Positions 1,352 through 31,800 of a DNA stretch of 32,000 nucleotides are shown piece after piece; the first letter of the stretch is position 1, and each line of letters opens with the position of its first letter. The stretch covers positions 2,730,001 to 2,762,000 of the forward strand of contig OZ245049.1 in NCBI GenBank assembly GCA_965224465.1, written 5' to 3'. The notes beneath the pieces were generated by a model. It was given only the letters and a program-made list of their open reading frames with translations, had not been told where the DNA came from and ran no database searches. The DNA is from Flavobacteriaceae bacterium. GTDB lineage: Bacteria; Bacteroidota; Bacteroidia; Flavobacteriales; Flavobacteriaceae. A program made the translations under genes and the position numbers.

Positions 1352-1514
1352 AATAACACCAAACACCTTTTCAAGTCACGGTTTAGAAGTATCCTTATTT
1401 TTTGTTTTAGCTAACCGAAAAATCTAAGGATAGCTATTGCTATCGTTCTATTTTTAAACAAGGCTAGGACGTAAAACAAACTATTTATATCGCTTATTTT
1501 GGATTGTAATTGGT
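1352..1514 (-). repeat. Intergenic hairpin repeat, copy A (inverted relative to copy B)
   Basis: The reverse complement aligns end to end with 21923-22082 and 27687-27838. It contains GATAGC-AATA-GCTATC flanked by TTTGTTTTA / TAAAACAAA arms. Confidence 0.85.
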
Positions 1515-1600
1515 GTAATTCTATATAATGATACGGACTTAACAAATAAATTGGCATCGAACAGCATTCCATAGAGAAGAAACACCTTGATATATCACAT

Positions 1601-5864: not shown

Positions 5865-5921
5865 GAAAAACACAAAGAACAATCCACTTCTTTAACAGAC
5901 ATCCTAAATAACAGTCTAATA

Positions 5922-5972
5922 CCAATTACAAAACATTTCTAAACCGTCACTTAGAAATGTAGCTGGTATTAT
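5922..5972 (+). repeat. Short form of the intergenic repeat (copy E): left end joined to right end, hairpin core absent
   Basis: ACCAATTACAA is an 11-nt match to the left end of copy A. TTCTAAACCGTCACTTAGAAATGTAGCTGGTATT aligns with the right ends of copies A, B, C and D. Confidence 0.65.
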
Positions 5973-5976
5973 GATT

Positions 5977-6000
5977 GCCAGCAGCCCTTTTTCTGCTGGC
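5977..6000 (+). other. GC-rich stem-loop between queD and tex
   Basis: GCCAGCAG-CCCTTTTT-CTGCTGGC, a perfect 8-bp stem. No T-tract follows on either strand. It ends 22 nt before the tex ATG. Confidence 0.5.
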
Positions 6001-6022
6001 ACAATGATAAACACTACTTTCT

Positions 6023-8152
6023 ATGACGCTTACCGCCTACATTCAACAATACACTCAAATCCCAACAAAGGGATTGACTGCTACCATTCAACTTTTAAAC
6101 GAAGACTGTACACTTCCATTTATCGCTCGATACCGGAAAGAACTCACTGGAAACCTAGACGAAGTAGCAATTGGAGAAATTATAACGTACAAAAAACAGT
6201 ACGAAACCATAGAAAAACGCAAGGAATCCATTCTAAAATCTCTGACAGAGCAAGGTGTATTGACCGATATTTTAAAAGATAAAATCGAAAAAACTCAAGA
6301 CCTAACCACATTAGAAGATATTTATTTGCCTTTTAAAAAGAAGCGAAAAACTAAAGCTGATACGGCCAAAGCAAACGGTTTAGAACCTTTGGCAAAAACC
6401 ATCATGGCACAGCGTTCCAATACAATAGAAAGCATTGCAGAAAACTACCTTAACAAAGAAGTTACAAATTCTGCATTAGCATTGGAAGGAGCAAGGCATA
6501 TTATTGCAGAATGGATCAATGAGCGTAGTGACATTCGTACACGTTTAAGGAAACAATTCAGTAAAAAATCTGCCATAACATCAAAAGTAATAAAAACAAA
6601 AAAAGACGATGAAAAGGCACAAAAATACCGTGATTATTTTGAATGGGAAGAACCCTTAAGTCGCTGTCCTTCCCATCGTTTACTTGCCATACTTAGAGCA
6701 GAACATGAAGGGTTTATCCGTTTTAAAATTGCAATCGATGAAGAAGATGCTCGTTTGGGTATTGAGGATAAAATTATTCATTCAGACAATCAGAGCGCAG
6801 ATCAAATTGCAGAAGCTATTGAAGATGCCTATAAACGCTTATTAGCCCCTTCTCTTTCCAAAGAAACACTCAAAACAGCCAAGGAAAAAGCCGACAACGC
6901 AGCAATTACAGTTTTTGCAAAAAACCTACAACAACTATTGTTAGGAGCGCCCTTAGGAGAAAAAAGCATTTTAGCCTTGGACCCAGGCTTTAGATCTGGA
7001 TGTAAACTAGTTTGTTTAGATGCACAAGGTGACATTCAACACAACGAAAATATCTACCCTCATGCACCACAAAATCAAAAAAACGAAGCCATAAAACGCA
7101 TTCAAATCTTGGTGAATAATTTTGATATAGAAGTGATTGCCATCGGAAATGGTACCGCCTCGAGAGAAACAGAAGCCCTCGTAAAAAGTATTACATTTGA
7201 TAAAAACATAGAGGTTTTTGTGGTCAGTGAAGCAGGTGCCTCCATTTATTCCGCTTCTAAAATCGCCAGAGAAGAATTTCCTGATTACGATGTAACCGTC
7301 CGCGGTGCAATCTCTATCGGAAGACGCTTGGCGGATCCTTTGGCAGAATTGGTGAAAATTGATGCCAAATCTATTGGTGTTGGACAATACCAACACGATG
7401 TAGATCAGACCTTACTCAACCATCAACTAGATACAGTAGTAGAACACTGTGTAAATAAAGTAGGCGTAAACATAAATACAGCAAGCATATCACTATTGAG
7501 TTATGTTTCTGGAATTGGCCCCAAATTAGCAGAAAACATCGTGAGTTATAGAGCTGAAAACGGTGCTTTTAAATCGAGAAGCGAAATAAAAAAAGTAAAA
7601 CGATTGGGCGCGAAAGCCTTTGAACAAGGTGCTGGTTTTTTACGTATTAAAAAAGCTAAAAACCCCTTGGATGATTCCGCTGTACATCCAGAAAGCTATG
7701 GCATTGTGAAACAAATGGCAAAAGACAGTAACTTAAGTATTCCAGAACTCATTGGAAACACGCAAGTACTGAGCAATCTAAATCTGAGAAGTTATTGTAC
7801 TGACAGCATTGGCTTGCCGACATTAAATGATATTGTATCCGAACTTAAAAAACCAGGATTAGACCCACGTGAGAAAGCAAAATCATTTTCATTTAACGAA
7901 CATATTCACAGTATAAACGACTTAATCGCTGGCATGGTACTTCCTGGAATTATCAATAACATCACCAACTTTGGTTGCTTTGTAGACATAGGAATTAAAG
8001 AAAGTGGATTGGTTCATATTTCCAACCTATCAACTACTTTTGTTAGTGATATCAATTCCGTTGTGAGCTTACAACAACAAGTAATGGTAAAAGTACTGGA
8101 GGTAGATATTGCTAGAAAACGTGTCCAATTAAGTATGAATTTCACAGAGTAA
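6023..8152 (+). CDS. tex: Tex-like RNA-binding transcription accessory protein
   Basis: 709 aa. N-terminal PFIARYRKELTG signature, a central YqgF/RuvC-like region (ILALDPGFRSGCK), an HhH region, and a C-terminal S1 domain (GMVLPGIINNITNFGCFVDIGIKESGLVHISNLS). Confidence 0.9.
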   Translation: MTLTAYIQQYTQIPTKGLTATIQLLNEDCTLPFIARYRKELTGNLDEVAIGEIITYKKQYETIEKRKESILKSLTEQGVLTDILKDKIEKTQDLTTLEDIYLPFKKKRKTKADTAKANGLEPLAKTIMAQRSNTIESIAENYLNKEVTNSALALEGARHIIAEWINERSDIRTRLRKQFSKKSAITSKVIKTKKDDEKAQKYRDYFEWEEPLSRCPSHRLLAILRAEHEGFIRFKIAIDEEDARLGIEDKIIHSDNQSADQIAEAIEDAYKRLLAPSLSKETLKTAKEKADNAAITVFAKNLQQLLLGAPLGEKSILALDPGFRSGCKLVCLDAQGDIQHNENIYPHAPQNQKNEAIKRIQILVNNFDIEVIAIGNGTASRETEALVKSITFDKNIEVFVVSEAGASIYSASKIAREEFPDYDVTVRGAISIGRRLADPLAELVKIDAKSIGVGQYQHDVDQTLLNHQLDTVVEHCVNKVGVNINTASISLLSYVSGIGPKLAENIVSYRAENGAFKSRSEIKKVKRLGAKAFEQGAGFLRIKKAKNPLDDSAVHPESYGIVKQMAKDSNLSIPELIGNTQVLSNLNLRSYCTDSIGLPTLNDIVSELKKPGLDPREKAKSFSFNEHIHSINDLIAGMVLPGIINNITNFGCFVDIGIKESGLVHISNLSTTFVSDINSVVSLQQQVMVKVLEVDIARKRVQLSMNFTE

Positions 8153-8219: not shown

Positions 8220-8255
8220 AGCTTAGCATAGCATTTGTTATGGTAAGCTATTTTT
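8220..8255 (+). terminator. Probable rho-independent terminator of tex
   Basis: AGCTTAGCAT-(10 nt loop)-ATGGTAAGCT, a 10-bp stem with one mismatch, followed by ATTTTT. Confidence 0.45.
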
Positions 8256-8256
8256 A

Positions 8257-8347
8257 CAAATAGCTTATTTCACGTTCTAACATCATTAAAAAACAACACA
8301 ATAGCAAGGGTATTCATCCATTTTCAACCTAGCTAAAACAAAAAACA
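8257..8347 (+). repeat. Decayed copy (F) of the intergenic hairpin repeat
   Basis: CAAATAGCTTATTTCACGTTCTAAC...AATAGCAAGGGTATTCATCC...CCTAGCTAAAACAAAAAACA aligns colinearly with copy B at roughly 70 % identity by hand. Stems are eroded. Confidence 0.55.
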
Positions 8348-8379
8348 GGACGACAACTTGCTTAAGCAATCGCTATCCA

Positions 8380-11796: not shown

Positions 11797-12639
11797 TTAC
11801 CAATCTTTTTGTTGTTTCACTTTTCTTCCTCTGGCTTTTTTTGCGTTTAATTTTTTTTGTGTTTTATTTTCTTCATTATTCATCGCCTCGAGCAATTGCT
11901 TTATTTGCTCTGGAGACAGTTGACTAGGACGCTTCTGAGGGGGTTGATCTTTCCCCTTATCCTTTTCCTTATCTTTATTTTTATCTTTAGGCTGATCGTC
12001 TTTTTTATCATCACCCTTATCATCTTTCTTTTTATCCTTGTCTTTTTTATCGTCTTTCTTCTTATCTTTCTTATCTTTCTTATCTTTCTTATCTTTCTTA
12101 TCGCCGTCTTTCCCTTTTTTCTTATCCTTATCCTTCTTATCTTTATTCTTGTTCTTGTCTTTTTTATTCTTCTTCTTATCTTTTTGTTGCTGCTCTTTTA
12201 ACTTTTCTTGCGCCAAGGCTAAATTATAACGAGTTTCATCATCTTTAGGGTTGTTCCGCAACGATTTTTTAAAAGCATCTACAGCCGGAGCATATTTTTT
12301 TTCATTCATTAAAGAATTCCCTAAATTATGATAAGATGCAGCTTTAGCTTCTTTGGTTTTTAATGTTTTTTCTAGCGAAGAATACTCCTTAATGGCTTCT
12401 TTATTCCTATTTTGTTGATAGATAGAATTCCCTAGATTATACGCCGCTTTTTTATTATCGGGTGCTATTTCCAAGGCTTTTTTAAATGCCACTTCAGCAG
12501 CTATATAACTAGCAGCATTGTATAATTTATTCCCTTGACGAATATACTCACGCGCTTGACGCTGTAATTTTTCATCTCCTTTTTTTTCCTGTGAAAAAAG
12601 GGCAAAAGGAATGCATAGTATGATTAAAAAATACTTCAT
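11797..12639 (-). CDS. batC: BatC-like TPR protein with a long Lys/Asp-rich low-complexity tail
   Basis: Signal peptide, three TPR-like units (AAYNLGNSIYQQNRNKEAIKEY, ASYHNLGNSLMNEKKYAPAVDAFKKSLRNNP, RYNLALAQEKL), then a KDKK-type tract of about 90 aa. Confidence 0.75.
   Translation of the reverse strand: MKYFLIILCIPFALFSQEKKGDEKLQRQAREYIRQGNKLYNAASYIAAEVAFKKALEIAPDNKKAAYNLGNSIYQQNRNKEAIKEYSSLEKTLKTKEAKAASYHNLGNSLMNEKKYAPAVDAFKKSLRNNPKDDETRYNLALAQEKLKEQQQKDKKKNKKDKNKNKDKKDKDKKKGKDGDKKDKKDKKDKKDKKKDDKKDKDKKKDDKGDDKKDDQPKDKNKDKEKDKGKDQPPQKRPSQLSPEQIKQLLEAMNNEENKTQKKLNAKKARGRKVKQQKDW
12061..12102. repeat. In-frame 9-bp tandem repeat (CTTATCTTT x4 plus a partial unit) inside batC
   Basis: Direct reading gives cttatcttt four times, then cttatc. 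On the coding strand it encodes the KDK-repeat tract ...DKKDKKDKKDKKDKK.... Confidence 0.9.
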
Positions 12640-14706: not shown

Positions 14707-16293
14707 TTATGGGTTTATTTTGATAGAAGTTAAAATTCTCTGTGTTATTACAACTGCATCTTTATCACCTTTTAAATGACTCACAATCACTTGGCGCATT
14801 CCTTTTGGTGTCGCAAACAATAACAAGGTTACTTTATGTTCAACGTTGTTGTTGGAATAATAACCAATGGCCTTTCTTCCTTCAACCCCATTGTTACGAA
14901 TGGCTTCTTGTATGATTCCGTATGGCTCAAAACCAGTAACAGCTCTTATCTGTGCAAAAGCTCCATCTACACTATTGTCTAAATCAAAATCAGGTACTTC
15001 TTTTAAAAAGCTCGTAGAATTAACTGCTACATAAAAACTAGACATTAAATCTCCCTGTGTGTACACCGTCATATCTCTAATCACGTCCTCTAATTGTTCG
15101 GGCACCTGAATGGTCATTGCACGCAGCATTTCTGGAGTAGCTATTGTCACAGAAGGATACCCATACGTAGAGGTATGCCATTGTTTGGTACTTAACGCTA
15201 ACGTTGATTTTTCAGAAACATCCTGTTGAATGTATTGGTATCCAATATAAGCACCTACAAAAAGTCCGATTGCTAATAGCGCCCCAAATATAATCAAACC
15301 AATTACGGCAAAATTAGTTCGTTTTTTAGCGGTTTCTTGTTGCTTAATTAATTGAGTGTTTTCAGAAATTTCTTCTATTTTAGTCACCGCATTTTTAGTG
15401 TCAACCAACACCGTTTCTATCACGTTCCTATCGGACTGTATGACCCCTATCTCAGGAGCACTTTTCGCAAACTTTACTAAATCTGCTGTCTCTAATACGC
15501 CCTTTAACTGCAGAATAGTTTCTTTAGAAATCCCTAAATCACTACTTTCGTTAAAATCTGTCATAGTTTCCACCAATTCGTCGGTAGTCAATTCCAAGGC
15601 AGGAATGTGTATGTCTTTCTCTAAATAAGTCCGTACTATATCTGTCAATTCACTGTAATAGTGTTTGATTTTATGTTGTTTTAACAATTCTTTTTCGTCC
15701 AATTCTTTCAAACGCTGCATGGCAATTTGTATGGCAGGAATGTCTGCCAATATCCGTTGTCTTTTTTTACTTCTCAGTTTATAAACCAATACAAAAACAC
15801 CAATTATCAATAGCAATAATACAGCGATAAAAATCAGAAGAACCACCCAAGAATCGAAAAAGTTTAACAAATAATCTAGCAACGAAAATTTCTCACCACG
15901 AATCGCTTTGATTGGATACATGGGTTGGTTTACAGTATCCAAGGGAACTGTAGCCACATTTATACGAAGGCTATCTGTAAAAAAGCGTTGCTTATTTATC
16001 CATACTTCTTGACTAGGAATCACAAAACTTCCACTATCAAAACTGGTTAAAATATATTTTTTTTCCAACCGATTTTTTAAGGTATCCACCGCTAAGGCTT
16101 CTACCAATTCCAATTTATGCAAGCTGTCAGGAACAAATTTAGGAAACACTACATTTTCTACAGCATTTACTTTGATTTTATACAACACCTGTTCACCAAT
16201 ACGGATTTGCGTTGTATCAGCATGAATACTCACTTGTTGAGCAGAGAGTCCAATCGTAAAAATTAATAAAAAATAATGTAAATATGTTTTCAT
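14707..16293 (-). CDS. BatD-paralogous two-TM membrane protein (DUF4381-like middle region) with an extra C-terminal domain of about 175 aa
   Basis: Signal peptide MKTYLHYFLLIFTIGLSAQ. N-terminal module ILTSFDSGSFVIPSQEVWINKQRFFTDSLRINV parallels BatD IIQPTSVGTFTIPAATLEYKGKVVKSNTVQINV. TM1 at about aa 148-171. Helical region ending ADLVKFAKSAP parallels BatD CDFARYSP. TM2 at about aa 327-352. Start abuts the DUF58 stop (TAAATG). Confidence 0.6.
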   Translation of the reverse strand: MKTYLHYFLLIFTIGLSAQQVSIHADTTQIRIGEQVLYKIKVNAVENVVFPKFVPDSLHKLELVEALAVDTLKNRLEKKYILTSFDSGSFVIPSQEVWINKQRFFTDSLRINVATVPLDTVNQPMYPIKAIRGEKFSLLDYLLNFFDSWVVLLIFIAVLLLLIIGVFVLVYKLRSKKRQRILADIPAIQIAMQRLKELDEKELLKQHKIKHYYSELTDIVRTYLEKDIHIPALELTTDELVETMTDFNESSDLGISKETILQLKGVLETADLVKFAKSAPEIGVIQSDRNVIETVLVDTKNAVTKIEEISENTQLIKQQETAKKRTNFAVIGLIIFGALLAIGLFVGAYIGYQYIQQDVSEKSTLALSTKQWHTSTYGYPSVTIATPEMLRAMTIQVPEQLEDVIRDMTVYTQGDLMSSFYVAVNSTSFLKEVPDFDLDNSVDGAFAQIRAVTGFEPYGIIQEAIRNNGVEGRKAIGYYSNNNVEHKVTLLLFATPKGMRQVIVSHLKGDKDAVVITQRILTSIKINP

Positions 16294-17166
16294 TTAACGT
16301 CCTCCTTTATGTTTAAAATAACCCAGTAATTTTTTAACATAGCTTTCATCTATTCGTGTACTAATAGTTCCCGAACCACTATGACTAAAAGCCTTAGTAA
16401 AATAATCTACTGTTTTTAAATAATGTGCTTTATATTGATTTCGGATGCTTTTTGACGCTGTATTCACCAAAACAGTTGCATTGGTTTCTGCATCTAACAT
16501 AGCGACCATCCCTAAATTTGGAATTTCAACATCGTGCTTATCAAAAATACGAATTCCAGTTACATCGTGTTTTCTACCAGCAATTTTTAACGTATGCTCG
16601 TAATCAGTATCCATAAAATCAGATAAGACAAACACAATAGCCCGTTTTTTTATCACATTAGACAAATATTTAAGCGCTCCATTGATATCTGTTTTTTTAC
16701 TTTCAGGATGGTATTCAATCAATTCACGAATAATCCGTAATACATGACTCCTTCCTTTTTTGGGAGGAATAAAAAGCTCTATCTGATCCGAAAATAAAAT
16801 CAGCCCTACTTTATCATTATTCTGAGTAGCAGAAAAAGCCAAGGTCGCAGCAATCTCTGTAGCAGTATCACGTTTAAACTGCGTCATTGTTCCAAAAGAT
16901 TCTGAACCACTCACGTCTACCATCAACATCATGGTGAGTTCACGTTCTTCTTCAAAAACTTTGATATACGTTTCGTTATACCGTGCGGTGACATTCCAAT
17001 CTATGGCGCGAATATCATCACCATATTGATATTGTCTCACTTCAGAAAAAGTCATTCCCCTTCCTTTAAAGGAACTATGATACTCCCCCGAAAAGATATG
17101 ATTTGACAAGCGTCTCGTCTTAATTTCGATTTTCCGAACCTTCTTTAATAATTCTTTCGTATCCAT
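16294..17166 (-). CDS. DUF58 domain protein (MoxR-associated, VWA-like)
   Basis: FKGRGMTFSEVRQYQYGDDIRAIDWNVTAR signature and the degenerate MIDAS motif VDVSGSE. Canonical partner of MoxR in Bat operons. Confidence 0.85.
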   Translation of the reverse strand: MDTKELLKKVRKIEIKTRRLSNHIFSGEYHSSFKGRGMTFSEVRQYQYGDDIRAIDWNVTARYNETYIKVFEEERELTMMLMVDVSGSESFGTMTQFKRDTATEIAATLAFSATQNNDKVGLILFSDQIELFIPPKKGRSHVLRIIRELIEYHPESKKTDINGALKYLSNVIKKRAIVFVLSDFMDTDYEHTLKIAGRKHDVTGIRIFDKHDVEIPNLGMVAMLDAETNATVLVNTASKSIRNQYKAHYLKTVDYFTKAFSHSGSGTISTRIDESYVKKLLGYFKHKGGR

Positions 17167-19215: not shown

Positions 19216-19223
19216 TATATTTG
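19216..19223 (+). promoter_or_regulatory. Candidate -7 box TATATTTG for the TonB-dependent receptor gene
   Basis: Exact TAnnTTTG match ending 21 nt before the ATG at 19245. No clear -33 TTG. Confidence 0.3.
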
Positions 19224-19244
19224 ATATTGCTAAAAACAATCATT

Positions 19245-21920
19245 ATGATAAGAAAAAGATTCATTTATTCAATTATTACAACACTACTATTTGTATCACC
19301 TGTAATATCACAAACTCAAATTCGCATTTCAGGAAAAGTACTAACATCCTCAGGGGAAGGCATTCCATTTGCCACTATAATAGAACAAGGAAACGTCAAC
19401 GGAACAACATCTAATGAAAAAGGAGAATTTAACTTTAAAGTATCTAAAATTCCAACCAAGCTAAAAGCGTCCTTCATAGGTTTTAAAAACAACACAATAA
19501 GCATCCATTCAGCAACAAACATTCGCATTATTTTACAAGAAGACAACGTGAGTTTAGAAGAGGTAATAATTACAGGAAACAGGGCAAAACCAAGAACCGT
19601 TTTAGACTCACCCGTACCTGTAGACAATGTAGGTGTCGAAGAACTAAAATCGAGTGGGCAAACAAGTATTGACCATATGTTAACCTACAAAATACCGTCC
19701 TATAATGCAACACAACAGACCATCTCTGATGGAACCGCACATTTTGACCCAGCAGACTTAAGAGGCTTAGGACCGAGTAGAACACTGGTTTTAATCAATG
19801 GGAAAAGGAAAAATCAAAGCGCACTTGTGTATGTAAATGACACGCCAGGAAAAGGAGAAGTAGGTACAGATATGAAAAGCATTCCAATAGCAGCTATTGA
19901 ACGGATAGAAGTACTTAGAGATGGCGCCTCTGCTCAATATGGTTCTGACGCCATTGCAGGAGTTATAAACATCATCTTAAAAAAAAATGTCAGTTATTCG
20001 AACGTATCTATCACTTCTGGAATAAGCACTGAAGGAGATGGATTTAATATTGGTGCGGATCTAAACACGACATTAACTGTTGGAGAAAAAGGCTATATAA
20101 ACGTTACATTTTCTTATTACAAACAAGAAGAAACAAACCGCGCTGGAAAACCTGGATCCGATGTATTATTTGGAGTGGATGGTACCAACCCATGGGTTCA
20201 GAAAAATCCTGATTTAGGAATGACAATTGGGCAACCAAAACAAGAAAAAGGAGAACTCTTTTACAATGCCTCTTTTCCTTCAAATACAAATGAAAACGTA
20301 TTTTATACTTTTGGAGGACTCAATGTAAGAAAAGGAATAAGTTATGCTTTGTACCGCACCCCATATTGGGTAGGTGACCCGCACCATTTACTACATGCCA
20401 AAGGAACAGAATACCAAGGTTTTCAACCCACATTTGAGACCAGTATTCAAGACTTTTTTAACAGTCTAGGTTACACTTTTAATTTGCTAGGATTTAAAGC
20501 CGACTTGGGTGGTACTTTTGGATTAAACAATGTAAGATACACCATCAACAATACATTGAATCCATCCTTAGGCGCAAACAGTCCCACAAAATTCTATGCA
20601 GGAGGTTATCAATTTAACAGCCTGATAGGAAACTTTGATTTGGTACGTTCTTTAGGAGATATAAGTATTGCACTAGGCTTAGAGGCAAAAAAAGAAACAT
20701 TCAAAGCATCGGCAGGAGAAAAAGCGTCATATGCAGGAGGCGGCGCACAATCTTTCCCTGGAATACAACCTTCGAACGCAGTAAATGAATCCAGAAACAA
20801 CATTGGAGCATACATTAATTTGGACTATGATATTACAGCCAATTTTCTTTTAGGAGGCGCTTTTAGATATGAGGATTATTCAGATTTTGGAAACAACAGC
20901 TCTTGGAAAGTAAACACACGTTACAAACTGGGAACAAAAGGAGCTATCAGAGCATCCTACAGTACTGGATTTAGAGCTCCTAGTTTACATCAGATATACT
21001 TGAGTAATATTCAAACGCTCGTTTCTGGAGGAACCATCTCAAACCAAGGAACTTTTAACAATCACAACCCCATAATACGAGACCAATTAGGCGTCCCTCA
21101 ATTACATGCAGAAACCTCTAAAAACATCAGTGCAGGTACCACCTTAAAACCGATGAAAAACTTAACTATCTCTGCCGATTTTTACAACGTAAAAGTGAAT
21201 GATCGTGTCCTATTTACAAGTTCTGTAGCAGGAGATAGCGATGACAGTACCATAAACCCCGTAGAACAAATCCTATTAGACAACAAGATTACAAGTATGA
21301 AGTTTTTTATAAATGCAGTAAACACCAATACAAAAGGTGTAGACTTAGTGGTAAATTACAACAATATGGGACTAGGAAAAGGAACTTTAGGAATCACCTT
21401 AAGTGCTAATTGGAACGAAACTAAAATAGACGGTAAAATTAAAACCCCCGCAATATTAGCTGCCAATGGTTACGACATTTTTGATCGAAAAGAACAGTCT
21501 CGTATTACCTCATCCAGACCTAAAACAAAAGTGCTTTTAGGATTGAACTACACATTAAACAAGCTCAATATCAACTTAAACAATACGTATTTTGGAGACG
21601 TTACATGGAGGCATCAAAACAATGGATTAAACGGAGCACCTTTAGGACCAGGCGGATCATTATTACCTATAGAAGACAGTGCCTACGATCAAACCTTTGC
21701 GGGTAAAACAATTACAGATTTGAACTTCGGATATCAATTTACTGAAAAATTATCAGGAACATTTACAGTCAATAATTTACTAAATGTATACCCCGATGTA
21801 ATAGACACCAAAGGCGATTTTGTTACCGACTTAGGCGGGCGATTTAAATACCCTTGGGAAGTAAATCAATTTGGTTTTAACGGCACCATACTAAAGGCAG
21901 GACTCTCGTATCAATTTTAA
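19245..21920 (+). CDS. TonB-dependent receptor with N-terminal CarboxypepD_reg-like domain
   Basis: Signal peptide MIRKRFIYSIITTLLFVSPVISQ, then IRISGKVLTSSGEGIPFATII. Plug domain (LEEVIITG, DLRGLGPSRTLVLINGKR, IERIEVLRDGASAQYGSDAIAGVINI) and a beta-barrel ending LSYQF. The TTG start at 19221 in the ORF track is replaced by the ATG at 19245. Confidence 0.88.
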   Translation: MIRKRFIYSIITTLLFVSPVISQTQIRISGKVLTSSGEGIPFATIIEQGNVNGTTSNEKGEFNFKVSKIPTKLKASFIGFKNNTISIHSATNIRIILQEDNVSLEEVIITGNRAKPRTVLDSPVPVDNVGVEELKSSGQTSIDHMLTYKIPSYNATQQTISDGTAHFDPADLRGLGPSRTLVLINGKRKNQSALVYVNDTPGKGEVGTDMKSIPIAAIERIEVLRDGASAQYGSDAIAGVINIILKKNVSYSNVSITSGISTEGDGFNIGADLNTTLTVGEKGYINVTFSYYKQEETNRAGKPGSDVLFGVDGTNPWVQKNPDLGMTIGQPKQEKGELFYNASFPSNTNENVFYTFGGLNVRKGISYALYRTPYWVGDPHHLLHAKGTEYQGFQPTFETSIQDFFNSLGYTFNLLGFKADLGGTFGLNNVRYTINNTLNPSLGANSPTKFYAGGYQFNSLIGNFDLVRSLGDISIALGLEAKKETFKASAGEKASYAGGGAQSFPGIQPSNAVNESRNNIGAYINLDYDITANFLLGGAFRYEDYSDFGNNSSWKVNTRYKLGTKGAIRASYSTGFRAPSLHQIYLSNIQTLVSGGTISNQGTFNNHNPIIRDQLGVPQLHAETSKNISAGTTLKPMKNLTISADFYNVKVNDRVLFTSSVAGDSDDSTINPVEQILLDNKITSMKFFINAVNTNTKGVDLVVNYNNMGLGKGTLGITLSANWNETKIDGKIKTPAILAANGYDIFDRKEQSRITSSRPKTKVLLGLNYTLNKLNINLNNTYFGDVTWRHQNNGLNGAPLGPGGSLLPIEDSAYDQTFAGKTITDLNFGYQFTEKLSGTFTVNNLLNVYPDVIDTKGDFVTDLGGRFKYPWEVNQFGFNGTILKAGLSYQF

Positions 21921-21922
21921 CC

Positions 21923-22082
21923 CCAATTACAATCCAAAATGACAGATATAAATAGTTTGTTTTACGTTCTGAGCTTGTTAAAAAAAAGAACGATAGCAAT
22001 GGCTATCCTTCCGCTTTTTGCCTAGCTAAAATAAAAAATAATTCGATTTCTAAAACGTCACTGGGGAATGTATTTGGCATAA
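21923..22082 (+). repeat. Intergenic hairpin repeat, copy B (reference orientation)
   Basis: Starts 3 nt after the receptor stop codon. CCAATTACAATCCAAAATGACAGATATAAATAGTTTGTTTTACG...GATAGC-AATG-GCTATC...CCTAGCTAAAATAAAAAATAA...TTCTAAAACGTCACTGGGGAATGTATTTGGCAT. Confidence 0.85.
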
Positions 22083-22100
22083 AACACCTGTACAACAGCT

Positions 22101-22151
22101 ATCAAAAAGGGATGAAACAGCTTTTCAAGCACTGTTTTATCCCTTTTTGAT
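22101..22151. terminator. Strong bidirectional terminator hairpin between the convergent receptor and lpxH genes
   Basis: ATCAAAAAGGGATGAAACAG-(11 nt)-CTGTTTTATCCCTTTTTGAT: 13 perfect bp, one G-T pair and 6 further bp. T-rich after the stem on both strands. Confidence 0.7.
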
Positions 22152-22193
22152 TTAAAGACTGATCGTCCGTAAATTAACCTTTTCAATAAGAGA

Positions 22194-22258
22194 TTAAAAA
22201 AACAGAACGCGAGCCCTCCAAATCAGTTTTTCTAAACAAAAAAAACACCCTAAAAGTT
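22194..22258 (+). repeat. Possible right-half relic (G) of the intergenic repeat
   Basis: AAAAAACAGAACG is a 13-nt exact match to copy C. It is followed by a TCTAAACAAAAAAAACA and CTAAAAGT arrangement colinear with the right arm of copy D. Otherwise about 60 % identity. Confidence 0.3.
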
Positions 22259-27422: not shown

Positions 27423-27686
27423 TTTTTTTTGAGGTATTGAGGTTAAAAATCACAGTGTTCCATATTTTTACCTACTAAAACACCCGAAATTTACACTTAG
27501 CAATTTTTTTTATATAAATATAGTTGATTTTACTGATTACCAAAAATTAAATCTCCTAAAGACAACGTTCAGAATTAGACAAACAAAACAAACAATTATG
27601 TAACTTTACATTAACACCACCACAAGCATCTTTTTATTTTCAAAAAAACAACTAAACCAGCCTTACTTATAAACCACAAAAATAAT

Positions 27687-27838
27687 CAATTACAATCCAA
27701 AATGATTGATATAAATAGTTTATTTTACGTCCTATCACTGTTAAAAAACAGAACGATAGCTAGGCTAGCCCTACATTTTTCACCTAGCAAAAATAATTCT
27801 ATTCCTAAACCGTCACTTGAAAATATATTTGGTATAAT
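27687..27838 (+). repeat. Intergenic hairpin repeat, copy C
   Basis: CAATTACAATCCAAAATGATTGATATAAATAGTTTATTTTACG...GATAGCTAGGCTAGCC...CCTAGCAAAAATAA...CCTAAACCGTCACTTGAAAATATATTTGGTAT. AATTACAA is present at 27688-27695 and again at 27836-27843. Confidence 0.85.
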
Positions 27839-28038
27839 TACAAAACATTGTTTTAAGGTGTAACTTTAGTTACACAGCTATAAAAAAACCATTTCAAATA
27901 TTAAGACAGCCTCTAAACATGCGGTATTACTAGCAAGACAAGGTGGGATTATCTAAAAACAAACACCCAAACAAAACAGATTCAAAACCTACGTATTGGT
28001 TCTTTTAGTATTAACATATAATTGTGACTAAATATGTT

Positions 28039-28046
28039 TAAATTTG
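28039..28046 (+). promoter_or_regulatory. Candidate -7 box TAAATTTG for dsbD
   Basis: Exact TAnnTTTG match ending 25 nt before the ATG at 28072. A TTG lies at 28022-28024. Confidence 0.35.
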
Positions 28047-28071
28047 AAGCTTTTACATAAACATCTATAGA

Positions 28072-31669: not shown

Positions 31670-31800
31670 AATAACACCAAATACATTTCCGAGTGACGTT
31701 TTAAGAATGAATTATTTTTTTGTTTTAGCTAGGCGGAAAATCTAAGGATAGCTATCGTTCTGTTTTTCCACAACGCTAGCACGTAAAACAAACTACTTAG
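31670..31800 (-). repeat. Intergenic hairpin repeat, copy D (inverted; apical loop collapsed, left end divergent)
   Basis: The reverse complement reads TAGTTTGTTTTACGTGCTAGCG...AACAGAACGATAGCTATCC...CGCCTAGCTAAAACAAAAAAATAA...TTAAAACGTCACTCGGAAATGTATTTGGTGTTAT. Confidence 0.8.

Follow-up and report, generated by a model that had tools for sequence, protein, structure and literature searches.

A 159-bp intergenic repeat in a Flavobacteriaceae genome is probably a MITE with a three-base TWA target-site duplication

What kind of sequence is the repeat of about 160 bp that recurs between the genes of a single stretch of marine Flavobacteriaceae DNA? The initial annotation of this stretch (32,000 nucleotides, here called the window) had described several copies of a repeat built around a long imperfect hairpin, and had proposed three interpretations: a non-autonomous element of the MITE or PATE kind, a REP/BIME-like structural repeat, or a multi-copy structured small RNA. 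The analysis reported here favors the first of these. With a probability that we put at about 85%, the family is a MITE, a DNA transposon that is 159 bp long, has no coding capacity, and ends in imperfect terminal inverted repeats (TIRs). The ends of the element, the triplets that flank them, one filled site with an exactly matching empty one, and the absence of the element from three further sites were observed directly.

Copies were recovered by an exact-seed repeat search, MAFFT alignment, and nhmmer with a profile HMM of the long copies, A to D. Of the copies in the window, three are complete (A, B, and C), one lacks an end (D), one is a short form of 49 bp (F), and one is a decayed relic (E); nhmmer E-values were 1e-44 to 1e-51 for A–D, 1e-15 for E, and 3e-6 for F. 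The complete length is 159 bp, composed of a 155-bp core (in A, B, and the copy of the related genome NORP150) and two terminal nucleotides per side. Copy A (1357–1515, minus strand, 159 bp) lies between a PorP/SprF gene and tRNA-Ala, with TAA at 1354–1356 and 1516–1518 on the plus strand, which reads TTA on both sides in the orientation of the element. Copy B (21921–22079, plus strand, 159 bp) consists of CC, the core CCAATTACA...TGTATTTGG, and CA. It sits between the stop codon of a TonB-dependent receptor gene and a strong hairpin at 22100–22152, and its target-site duplication is TAA at 21918–21920 on the left, which is the receptor's stop codon, and TAA at 22080–22082 on the right. Copy C (27684–27834, plus strand) keeps both ends and is 151 bp long, with a 7-nt internal deletion and a 1-nt deletion at the apex; it occupies the divergent spacer between an Hpt-like gene and dsbD, and has TAA on its right (27835–27837) and an ambiguous triplet on its left (AAT, or TAA if shifted).

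The other three copies are incomplete. Copy D (31675 to ~31812, minus strand), downstream of a class-V aminotransferase gene, has an intact right end (CA followed by CCAAATACA... on the plus strand) flanked by TAA at 31672–31674; past ~31800 the left terminal repeat is either gone or degenerate. Copy F (5920–5968, plus strand), between the PTPS and Tex genes, is an internal-deletion derivative that retains both termini (TA CCAATTACAA...TGTAGCTGG TA) and is flanked by TAA (5917–5919) and TTA (5969–5971). Copy E (~8232–8352, plus strand), between the Tex gene and a convergent gene, is 64–75% identical to B and C in its center and has unrecognizable ends. The claim of four full copies therefore stands for A, B, and C and fails for D, which is not full because its left end is missing. 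The core-less short form first placed at 5922–5972 and the relic first placed at 8257–8347 were both recovered, as F and E, while a further possible relic at 22194–22258 was not upheld: it scored E=0.42 in a 5.7-kb nhmmer search and rested on a 13-nt match. Truncation, decay, and internal deletion, as seen in D, E, and F, are the usual fate of such elements.

Ungapped pairwise identity between copies is 75–88%, close to the 75–85% first estimated by hand for the full copies. Because the copies have diverged by 12–25%, the family may no longer be active. All six copies in the 32 kb are intergenic and both orientations are represented, as had been stated. The element has no coding capacity, and no ORF is confined to it; the ORFs that overlap copies are mechanical calls, one at 1411–1683 spanning copy A and the tRNA gene and one at 5971–6282 touching the flank of copy F. 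Together the copies sum to 777 bp, or 21.8% of the ~3.56 kb of non-coding DNA in the window, so the earlier figure of about a fifth was right.

The hairpin next to copy B (22100–22152) has a 20-bp stem with an A-run on one side and a T-run on the other (ATCAAAAAGGGATGAAACAGC...GCACTGTTTTATCCCTTTTTGAT). The TonB-dependent receptor and LpxH genes converge on it, and it has the look of an intrinsic terminator that serves both directions; the hairpin that relatives have at this position is a different one. In the JGI relatives L101–L106, at the locus orthologous to window positions 19221–21920, the receptor is a 105–113-aa N-terminal remnant adjoining ~0.8 kb of non-coding DNA, the gene being intact (891 aa) in L107, L108, and the window; within the clade this is either decay of the gene or a polymorphic deletion. 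Around copy C (27423–28071), L101 has four extra genes between the Hpt-like and dsbD orthologues, and the copy C spacer is thus a rearrangement point in the clade. Elsewhere in the window, the gene at 11797–12639 (minus strand), coding for the TPR protein of a Bat/MoxR operon, contains degenerate 9–12-nt repeats at 11989–12198 that correspond to a lysine/aspartate-rich stretch (KKDKKDKKDKK...). The composition of the window is 33.5% A, 31.1% T, 20.1% C, and 15.4% G, and the marked excess of C over G on the plus strand is in line with the location of most genes on the minus strand.

The element ends in imperfect TIRs (TACCAATTACAATCC... on the left and ...GGAAATGTATTTGGTA on the right). Aligning the left end of the consensus, TACCAATTACAATCCAAAATGACCGAT, with the reverse-complemented right end, TACCAAATACATTTCCAAGTGACGGTT, gives matches at 20 of 27 positions; MITEs are recognized by TIRs of at least 10–15 bp and by a non-coding length of about 50–800 bp, a range that includes 159 bp. 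With the terminal dinucleotides, the consensus ends read TA-CCAATTACAATCCAAAATGAC... and ...GTCACTTGGAAATGTATTTGG-TA. These two outermost nucleotides per side (consensus TA) are less conserved than the core, and the CCAA...TTGG just inside them is invariant in all end-bearing copies, F included. The whole element is an imperfect palindrome that folds end to end, and so extends beyond the central 95 nt first noted.

Outside the ends, the element is flanked by a 3-bp TWA target-site duplication. In element orientation, the left and right triplets are TTA/TTA in copy A, TAA/TAA in B, TTA/TTA and TTA/TTG in the copies of the related genomes NORP167 and NORP150, TAA/TTA in F, and AAT/TAA in C, where the left flank fits the TWA rule uncleanly; D is informative on its right side only, with TTA. 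Direct TWA repeats are thus perfect in A, B, and the NORP167 copy, and have one mismatch in the NORP150 copy and in F. Counting a truncated fragment in the relative L123, TWA occupies 12 of 14 flank triplets, against a background of 7.8% in the intergenic DNA of the window (P ~4e-12). Agreement at the middle base is perfect in three of five informative copies, which is no better than chance given TWA on both sides. The case for a duplication therefore rests mainly on the stop codon at copy B, a 162-bp length match at an empty site, and the direct arrangement of the triplets. The receptor's C-terminus, GLSYQF*, is identical in the window and in the relatives L107 and L108, so that the TAA to the left of copy B is host sequence that was duplicated after the element.

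Two other ways of drawing the ends were considered and rejected. A 2-bp TA duplication of the IS630/mariner type predicts an insertion of 161 bp and leaves the conserved TWA triplets unexplained, while the 3-bp model fits the 162-bp difference between filled and empty sites. A TIR extending through the triplets would pair TTA with TAA, a pattern found in F alone.

LpxH, Tex, and an MBL-rhodanese protein served as queries in the protein searches that turned up related genomes, whose loci were then compared. These form a small clade, which shares 83–91% amino-acid identity and 77–83% gene DNA identity with the window. The nearest relatives of the source are Flavobacteriaceae MAGs from the North Pond subseafloor, and full-length copies outside the source occur in two of these, NORP167 (locus L056) and NORP150 (locus L085), at 80–85% identity to the window copies. 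A contig scan with the 15-mer TAGTTTRTTTTACGT was unspecific: among the 100 loci listed, 98 were chance matches and two were the true copies. Nine window proteins were found in the protein collection, and each is the sole member of its 90%-identity cluster; the source species is therefore one without close sequenced relatives.

The comparison of filled and empty sites, suggested from the outset as a check on mobility, was decisive at the NORP150 copy. This copy lies in a 265-bp spacer, with the MBL-rhodanese gene on one side and the following rhodanese gene on the other. In four relatives (L118, L119, L120, and L122) the same spacer is 103–104 bp long, aligns on both flanks, lacks the element, and has TAA at the aligned position. 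The difference of 162 bp is exactly the sum of the 155-bp core, the two terminal nucleotides on either side, and a 3-bp duplication. In L123 this spacer is 147 bp and is likewise without the element. An allele empty to the base was available at this one site, the intergenic DNA of relatives at the A, B, and F sites being too diverged to align; at the orthologous sites of these three copies, the relatives (77–83% identical in gene DNA) have no copy and shorter spacers. Presence and absence at orthologous sites, exact at one and at the level of the spacer at three, is what insertion of a MITE leaves behind.

Across ~150 kb of non-redundant DNA from relatives there was no full copy and one truncated fragment, compared with six copies in the 32-kb window. 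This contrast in density points to lineage-specific amplification. The fragment (L123, TULL18 scaffold_126, 16557–16612; E=2e-8) is a right end of the MITE terminating in TTGG-TT-TAA. Upstream, a gene for a 110-aa Nitro_FeMo-Co-domain protein (16244–16576) runs into it, and the last codons and stop codon of this gene are therefore MITE-derived.

The hairpin that had drawn attention to the repeat is genuine. In a 54-pair consensus structure of six sequences, 90% of cells pair, compared with 41–49% when the partner is slid by one to three columns, and the fold of copy B has a z-score of −2.6 for the strand as given and of −4.0 for its complement. RNAalifold applied to all seven sequences returned the apical 6-bp stem only, and the long hairpin was taken from the five complete copies. 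Its existence follows from the palindromic character of the element, and it will arise in the RNA whenever transcription runs through a copy, where it could affect mRNA stability or termination.

A hairpin of this quality raises the alternative that the repeats represent a structured small RNA present in multiple copies, or an RNA module acting in cis, whose function depends on it. Such a module might be a 3′-UTR stabilizer, an RNase target, or a terminator, and the repeats would then be gene copies or exapted elements selected at the RNA level. Besides the well-formed fold, this explanation can draw on a strand asymmetry: in all seven sequences the predicted fold is 1 to 15 kcal/mol more stable for the complement of the B orientation. 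The asymmetry arises because mismatches in the arms mostly read as A-C on one strand but as G-U on its complement; those giving G-U on the B-complement strand outnumber the converse by 34 to 18. The B-complement strand also shows an apex stem followed by a T-run, the pattern of a simple terminator, and copy B probably lies inside the 3′ UTR of the TonB-dependent receptor gene. The copies share ancestry, however, so the asymmetry amounts to about one observation; it may have been inherited from the founder sequence, and we do not count it in favor of an RNA function. Nor does the earlier argument from covariation survive. The basal helix was said to be maintained through base changes, yet none of the 54 pairs is altered on both sides (six sequences, low power), and the covariation score is equaled or exceeded by 453 of 500 shuffles of the same six sequences; the A..T pair cited from copy C is an alignment effect, its 7-nt deletion having removed the partner arm. 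An Rfam 15 search, which included Flavo-1 as had been recommended, gave tRNA-Ala(GGC) as the sole match at gathering thresholds in the whole window. At E<=10 around copy B nothing credible fell on the element; the matches fall on the hairpin at 22100–22152, which is the source of spurious sub-threshold matches to miRNA families. Inspection of the consensus by eye found no exact match to the Bacteroidetes promoter TAnnTTTG on either strand. Copies lie in either orientation to the flanking genes, and copy C lies in a divergent promoter spacer. Since this reading also leaves the TIRs, the duplication, and the empty site unexplained, we consider it improbable. It is somewhat less doubtful, though still unlikely, that an element of transposon origin has been recruited as an RNA module specific to one strand, with the B-complement strand acting as a 3′-UTR stabilizer, processing site, or terminator; such roles have been reported for Correia and ERIC elements. 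On that model the transposon family would double as a dispersed post-transcriptional regulator in the lineage.

The remaining explanations concern how the repeat spreads and whether it still does. REP/BIME palindromes spread by a RAYT (an IS200/IS605-like Y1 enzyme), and PATE derived from IS200/IS605, resemble the present family in being intergenic, palindromic, multi-copy, and in both orientations, frequently close to the 3′ ends of genes and to other hairpins. REP/BIME sequences, however, have a palindromic unit of 20–40 nt, usually in clustered alternating arrays, are RAYT-associated, and lack a target-site duplication; here the unit is 159 bp, the copies are single, and a duplication is present. 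PATE lack both TIRs and target-site duplications, have subterminal hairpins, and insert 3′ of a fixed tetra- or pentanucleotide, and for this reason do not fit an element with true TIRs and 3-bp direct TWA repeats, which are absent from elements of Y1 transposases. Nor did the Pfam-scanned ORFs of the window include a RAYT or TnpA(Y1) gene, and the Rfam families tied to IS605-type ends gave no match, making this the least probable of the readings weighed. Alternatively, the family could be an immobile, functionless relic of an old dispersed repeat, its patchiness the result of differential loss. The 12–25% divergence and the frequency of truncated or decayed forms (D, E, F, and the L123 fragment) accord with age, and the related copies in NORP150, NORP167, and L123 show that the family predates the split of these species. 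Loss would nevertheless have had to be precise to the base, leaving a 103–104-bp spacer with a single TAA in four relatives, and the six copies in 32 kb against one fragment in ~150 kb speak for amplification in one lineage. We regard this as very improbable; it speaks to present activity alone, and a MITE origin could hold alongside it. The MITE reading, by comparison, accounts at once for the TIRs, the 3-bp duplication, the exact pair of filled and empty sites, the three further empty sites, and the retention of both ends in F.

If the element is a MITE, it should have been moved by a transposase acting in trans. No transposase was found among ten ORFs of the window scanned with Pfam, in agreement with the first inspection, which had seen neither a transposase nor a RAYT-like gene; orthologues of the remaining window genes are ordinary housekeeping genes. 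The exact end motifs occurred, among the related loci compared, only in the two known copies, with no autonomous partner. BLAST searches of plasmids and phages did not find the element, a 42-nt left-end query against plasmids returning only chance matches of 18–23 nt; viral contigs had no match, and neither of two specific-pattern scans of JGI metagenomes gave a true one. A single metagenome match (L117) was rejected as a chance occurrence inside a coding gene. A literature search with sequence strings of the element brought up nothing relevant. The search for an IS with the same ends, which had been proposed as a check, thus came back empty in related loci, plasmids, phages, viral contigs, and JGI metagenomes, and the partner is therefore one that we infer. 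The 3-bp TWA duplication makes a DDE transposase of the PIF/Harbinger–IS5 lineage the likeliest driver, and the family was probably mobilized by an IS5-family or PIF/Harbinger-like enzyme of this kind. Encoded elsewhere in the genome, such a transposase would bind both ends of the element, excise or copy it, and insert it at TWA (TTA or TAA), where staggered cuts and repair would duplicate the trinucleotide.

The main consequence is one of annotation: a single MITE family makes up about one-fifth of the non-coding DNA in this region, and should be masked before promoters, small RNAs, or regulatory motifs are sought. Its TWA target and defined ends offer a means of tracing, in the full genome, the transposase responsible. 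The higher density here than in the North Pond relatives marks a lineage-specific burst, which could make the family a marker of strain or lineage. Copy B, inserted at a stop codon, and copy C, inserted in a divergent promoter spacer, may affect neighboring genes, and in L123 a gene takes its 3′ end and its stop codon from a fragment of the element.

Among known systems, the closest in overall build are the Correia (NEMIS), ERIC, RUP, and YPAL MITEs, which are likewise ~100–170 bp long, non-coding, bounded by TIRs, palindromic with a long hairpin, and dispersed between genes. They are often co-transcribed with flanking genes, have short AT-rich target duplications, and include size variants formed by internal deletion; RNase III or RNase E processing and promoter or terminator activity are features of families of this type. 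We know of no sequence relationship between them and the present element, and the comparison is one of description. They differ in host, being known from Proteobacteria and Firmicutes, whereas the present family is in a member of the Flavobacteriaceae, and in target: Correia and RUP (and, it is believed, ERIC) duplicate the 2-bp TA, the present family the 3-bp TWA.

In its duplication the element is more like the Tourist-like MITEs and PIF/Harbinger, a likeness that lies in the target-site duplication (3 bp, at TTA or TAA). The PIF/Harbinger superfamily is recognized by its 3-bp TWA duplications, and its prokaryotic relatives in the IS5 family, the ISL2 and IS1031 groups (as classified in ISfinder), typically make 3-bp duplications too; the present element, with its 3-bp duplication at a TWA/TNA target, conforms to both. 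Canonical Harbinger elements generate 3-bp target-site duplications, and PIF/Harbinger and ISL2EU cluster with the IS5 family (PMC12730594). Elements of the ISL2 and IS1031 groups are present in Bacteroidota, in Amoebophilus (PMC3196728). A census of 46,051 Bacteroidota genomes counted 81,380 different MITEs, thousands of them in Flavobacterium (PMC11602168), so that an element of this kind is to be expected in the phylum, and the current understanding of bacterial MITEs, a common and well-known kind of element, is unchanged. The present family is probably a new one of narrow distribution: among the sequences compared, it occurs only in the source genome and a few of its North Pond relatives.
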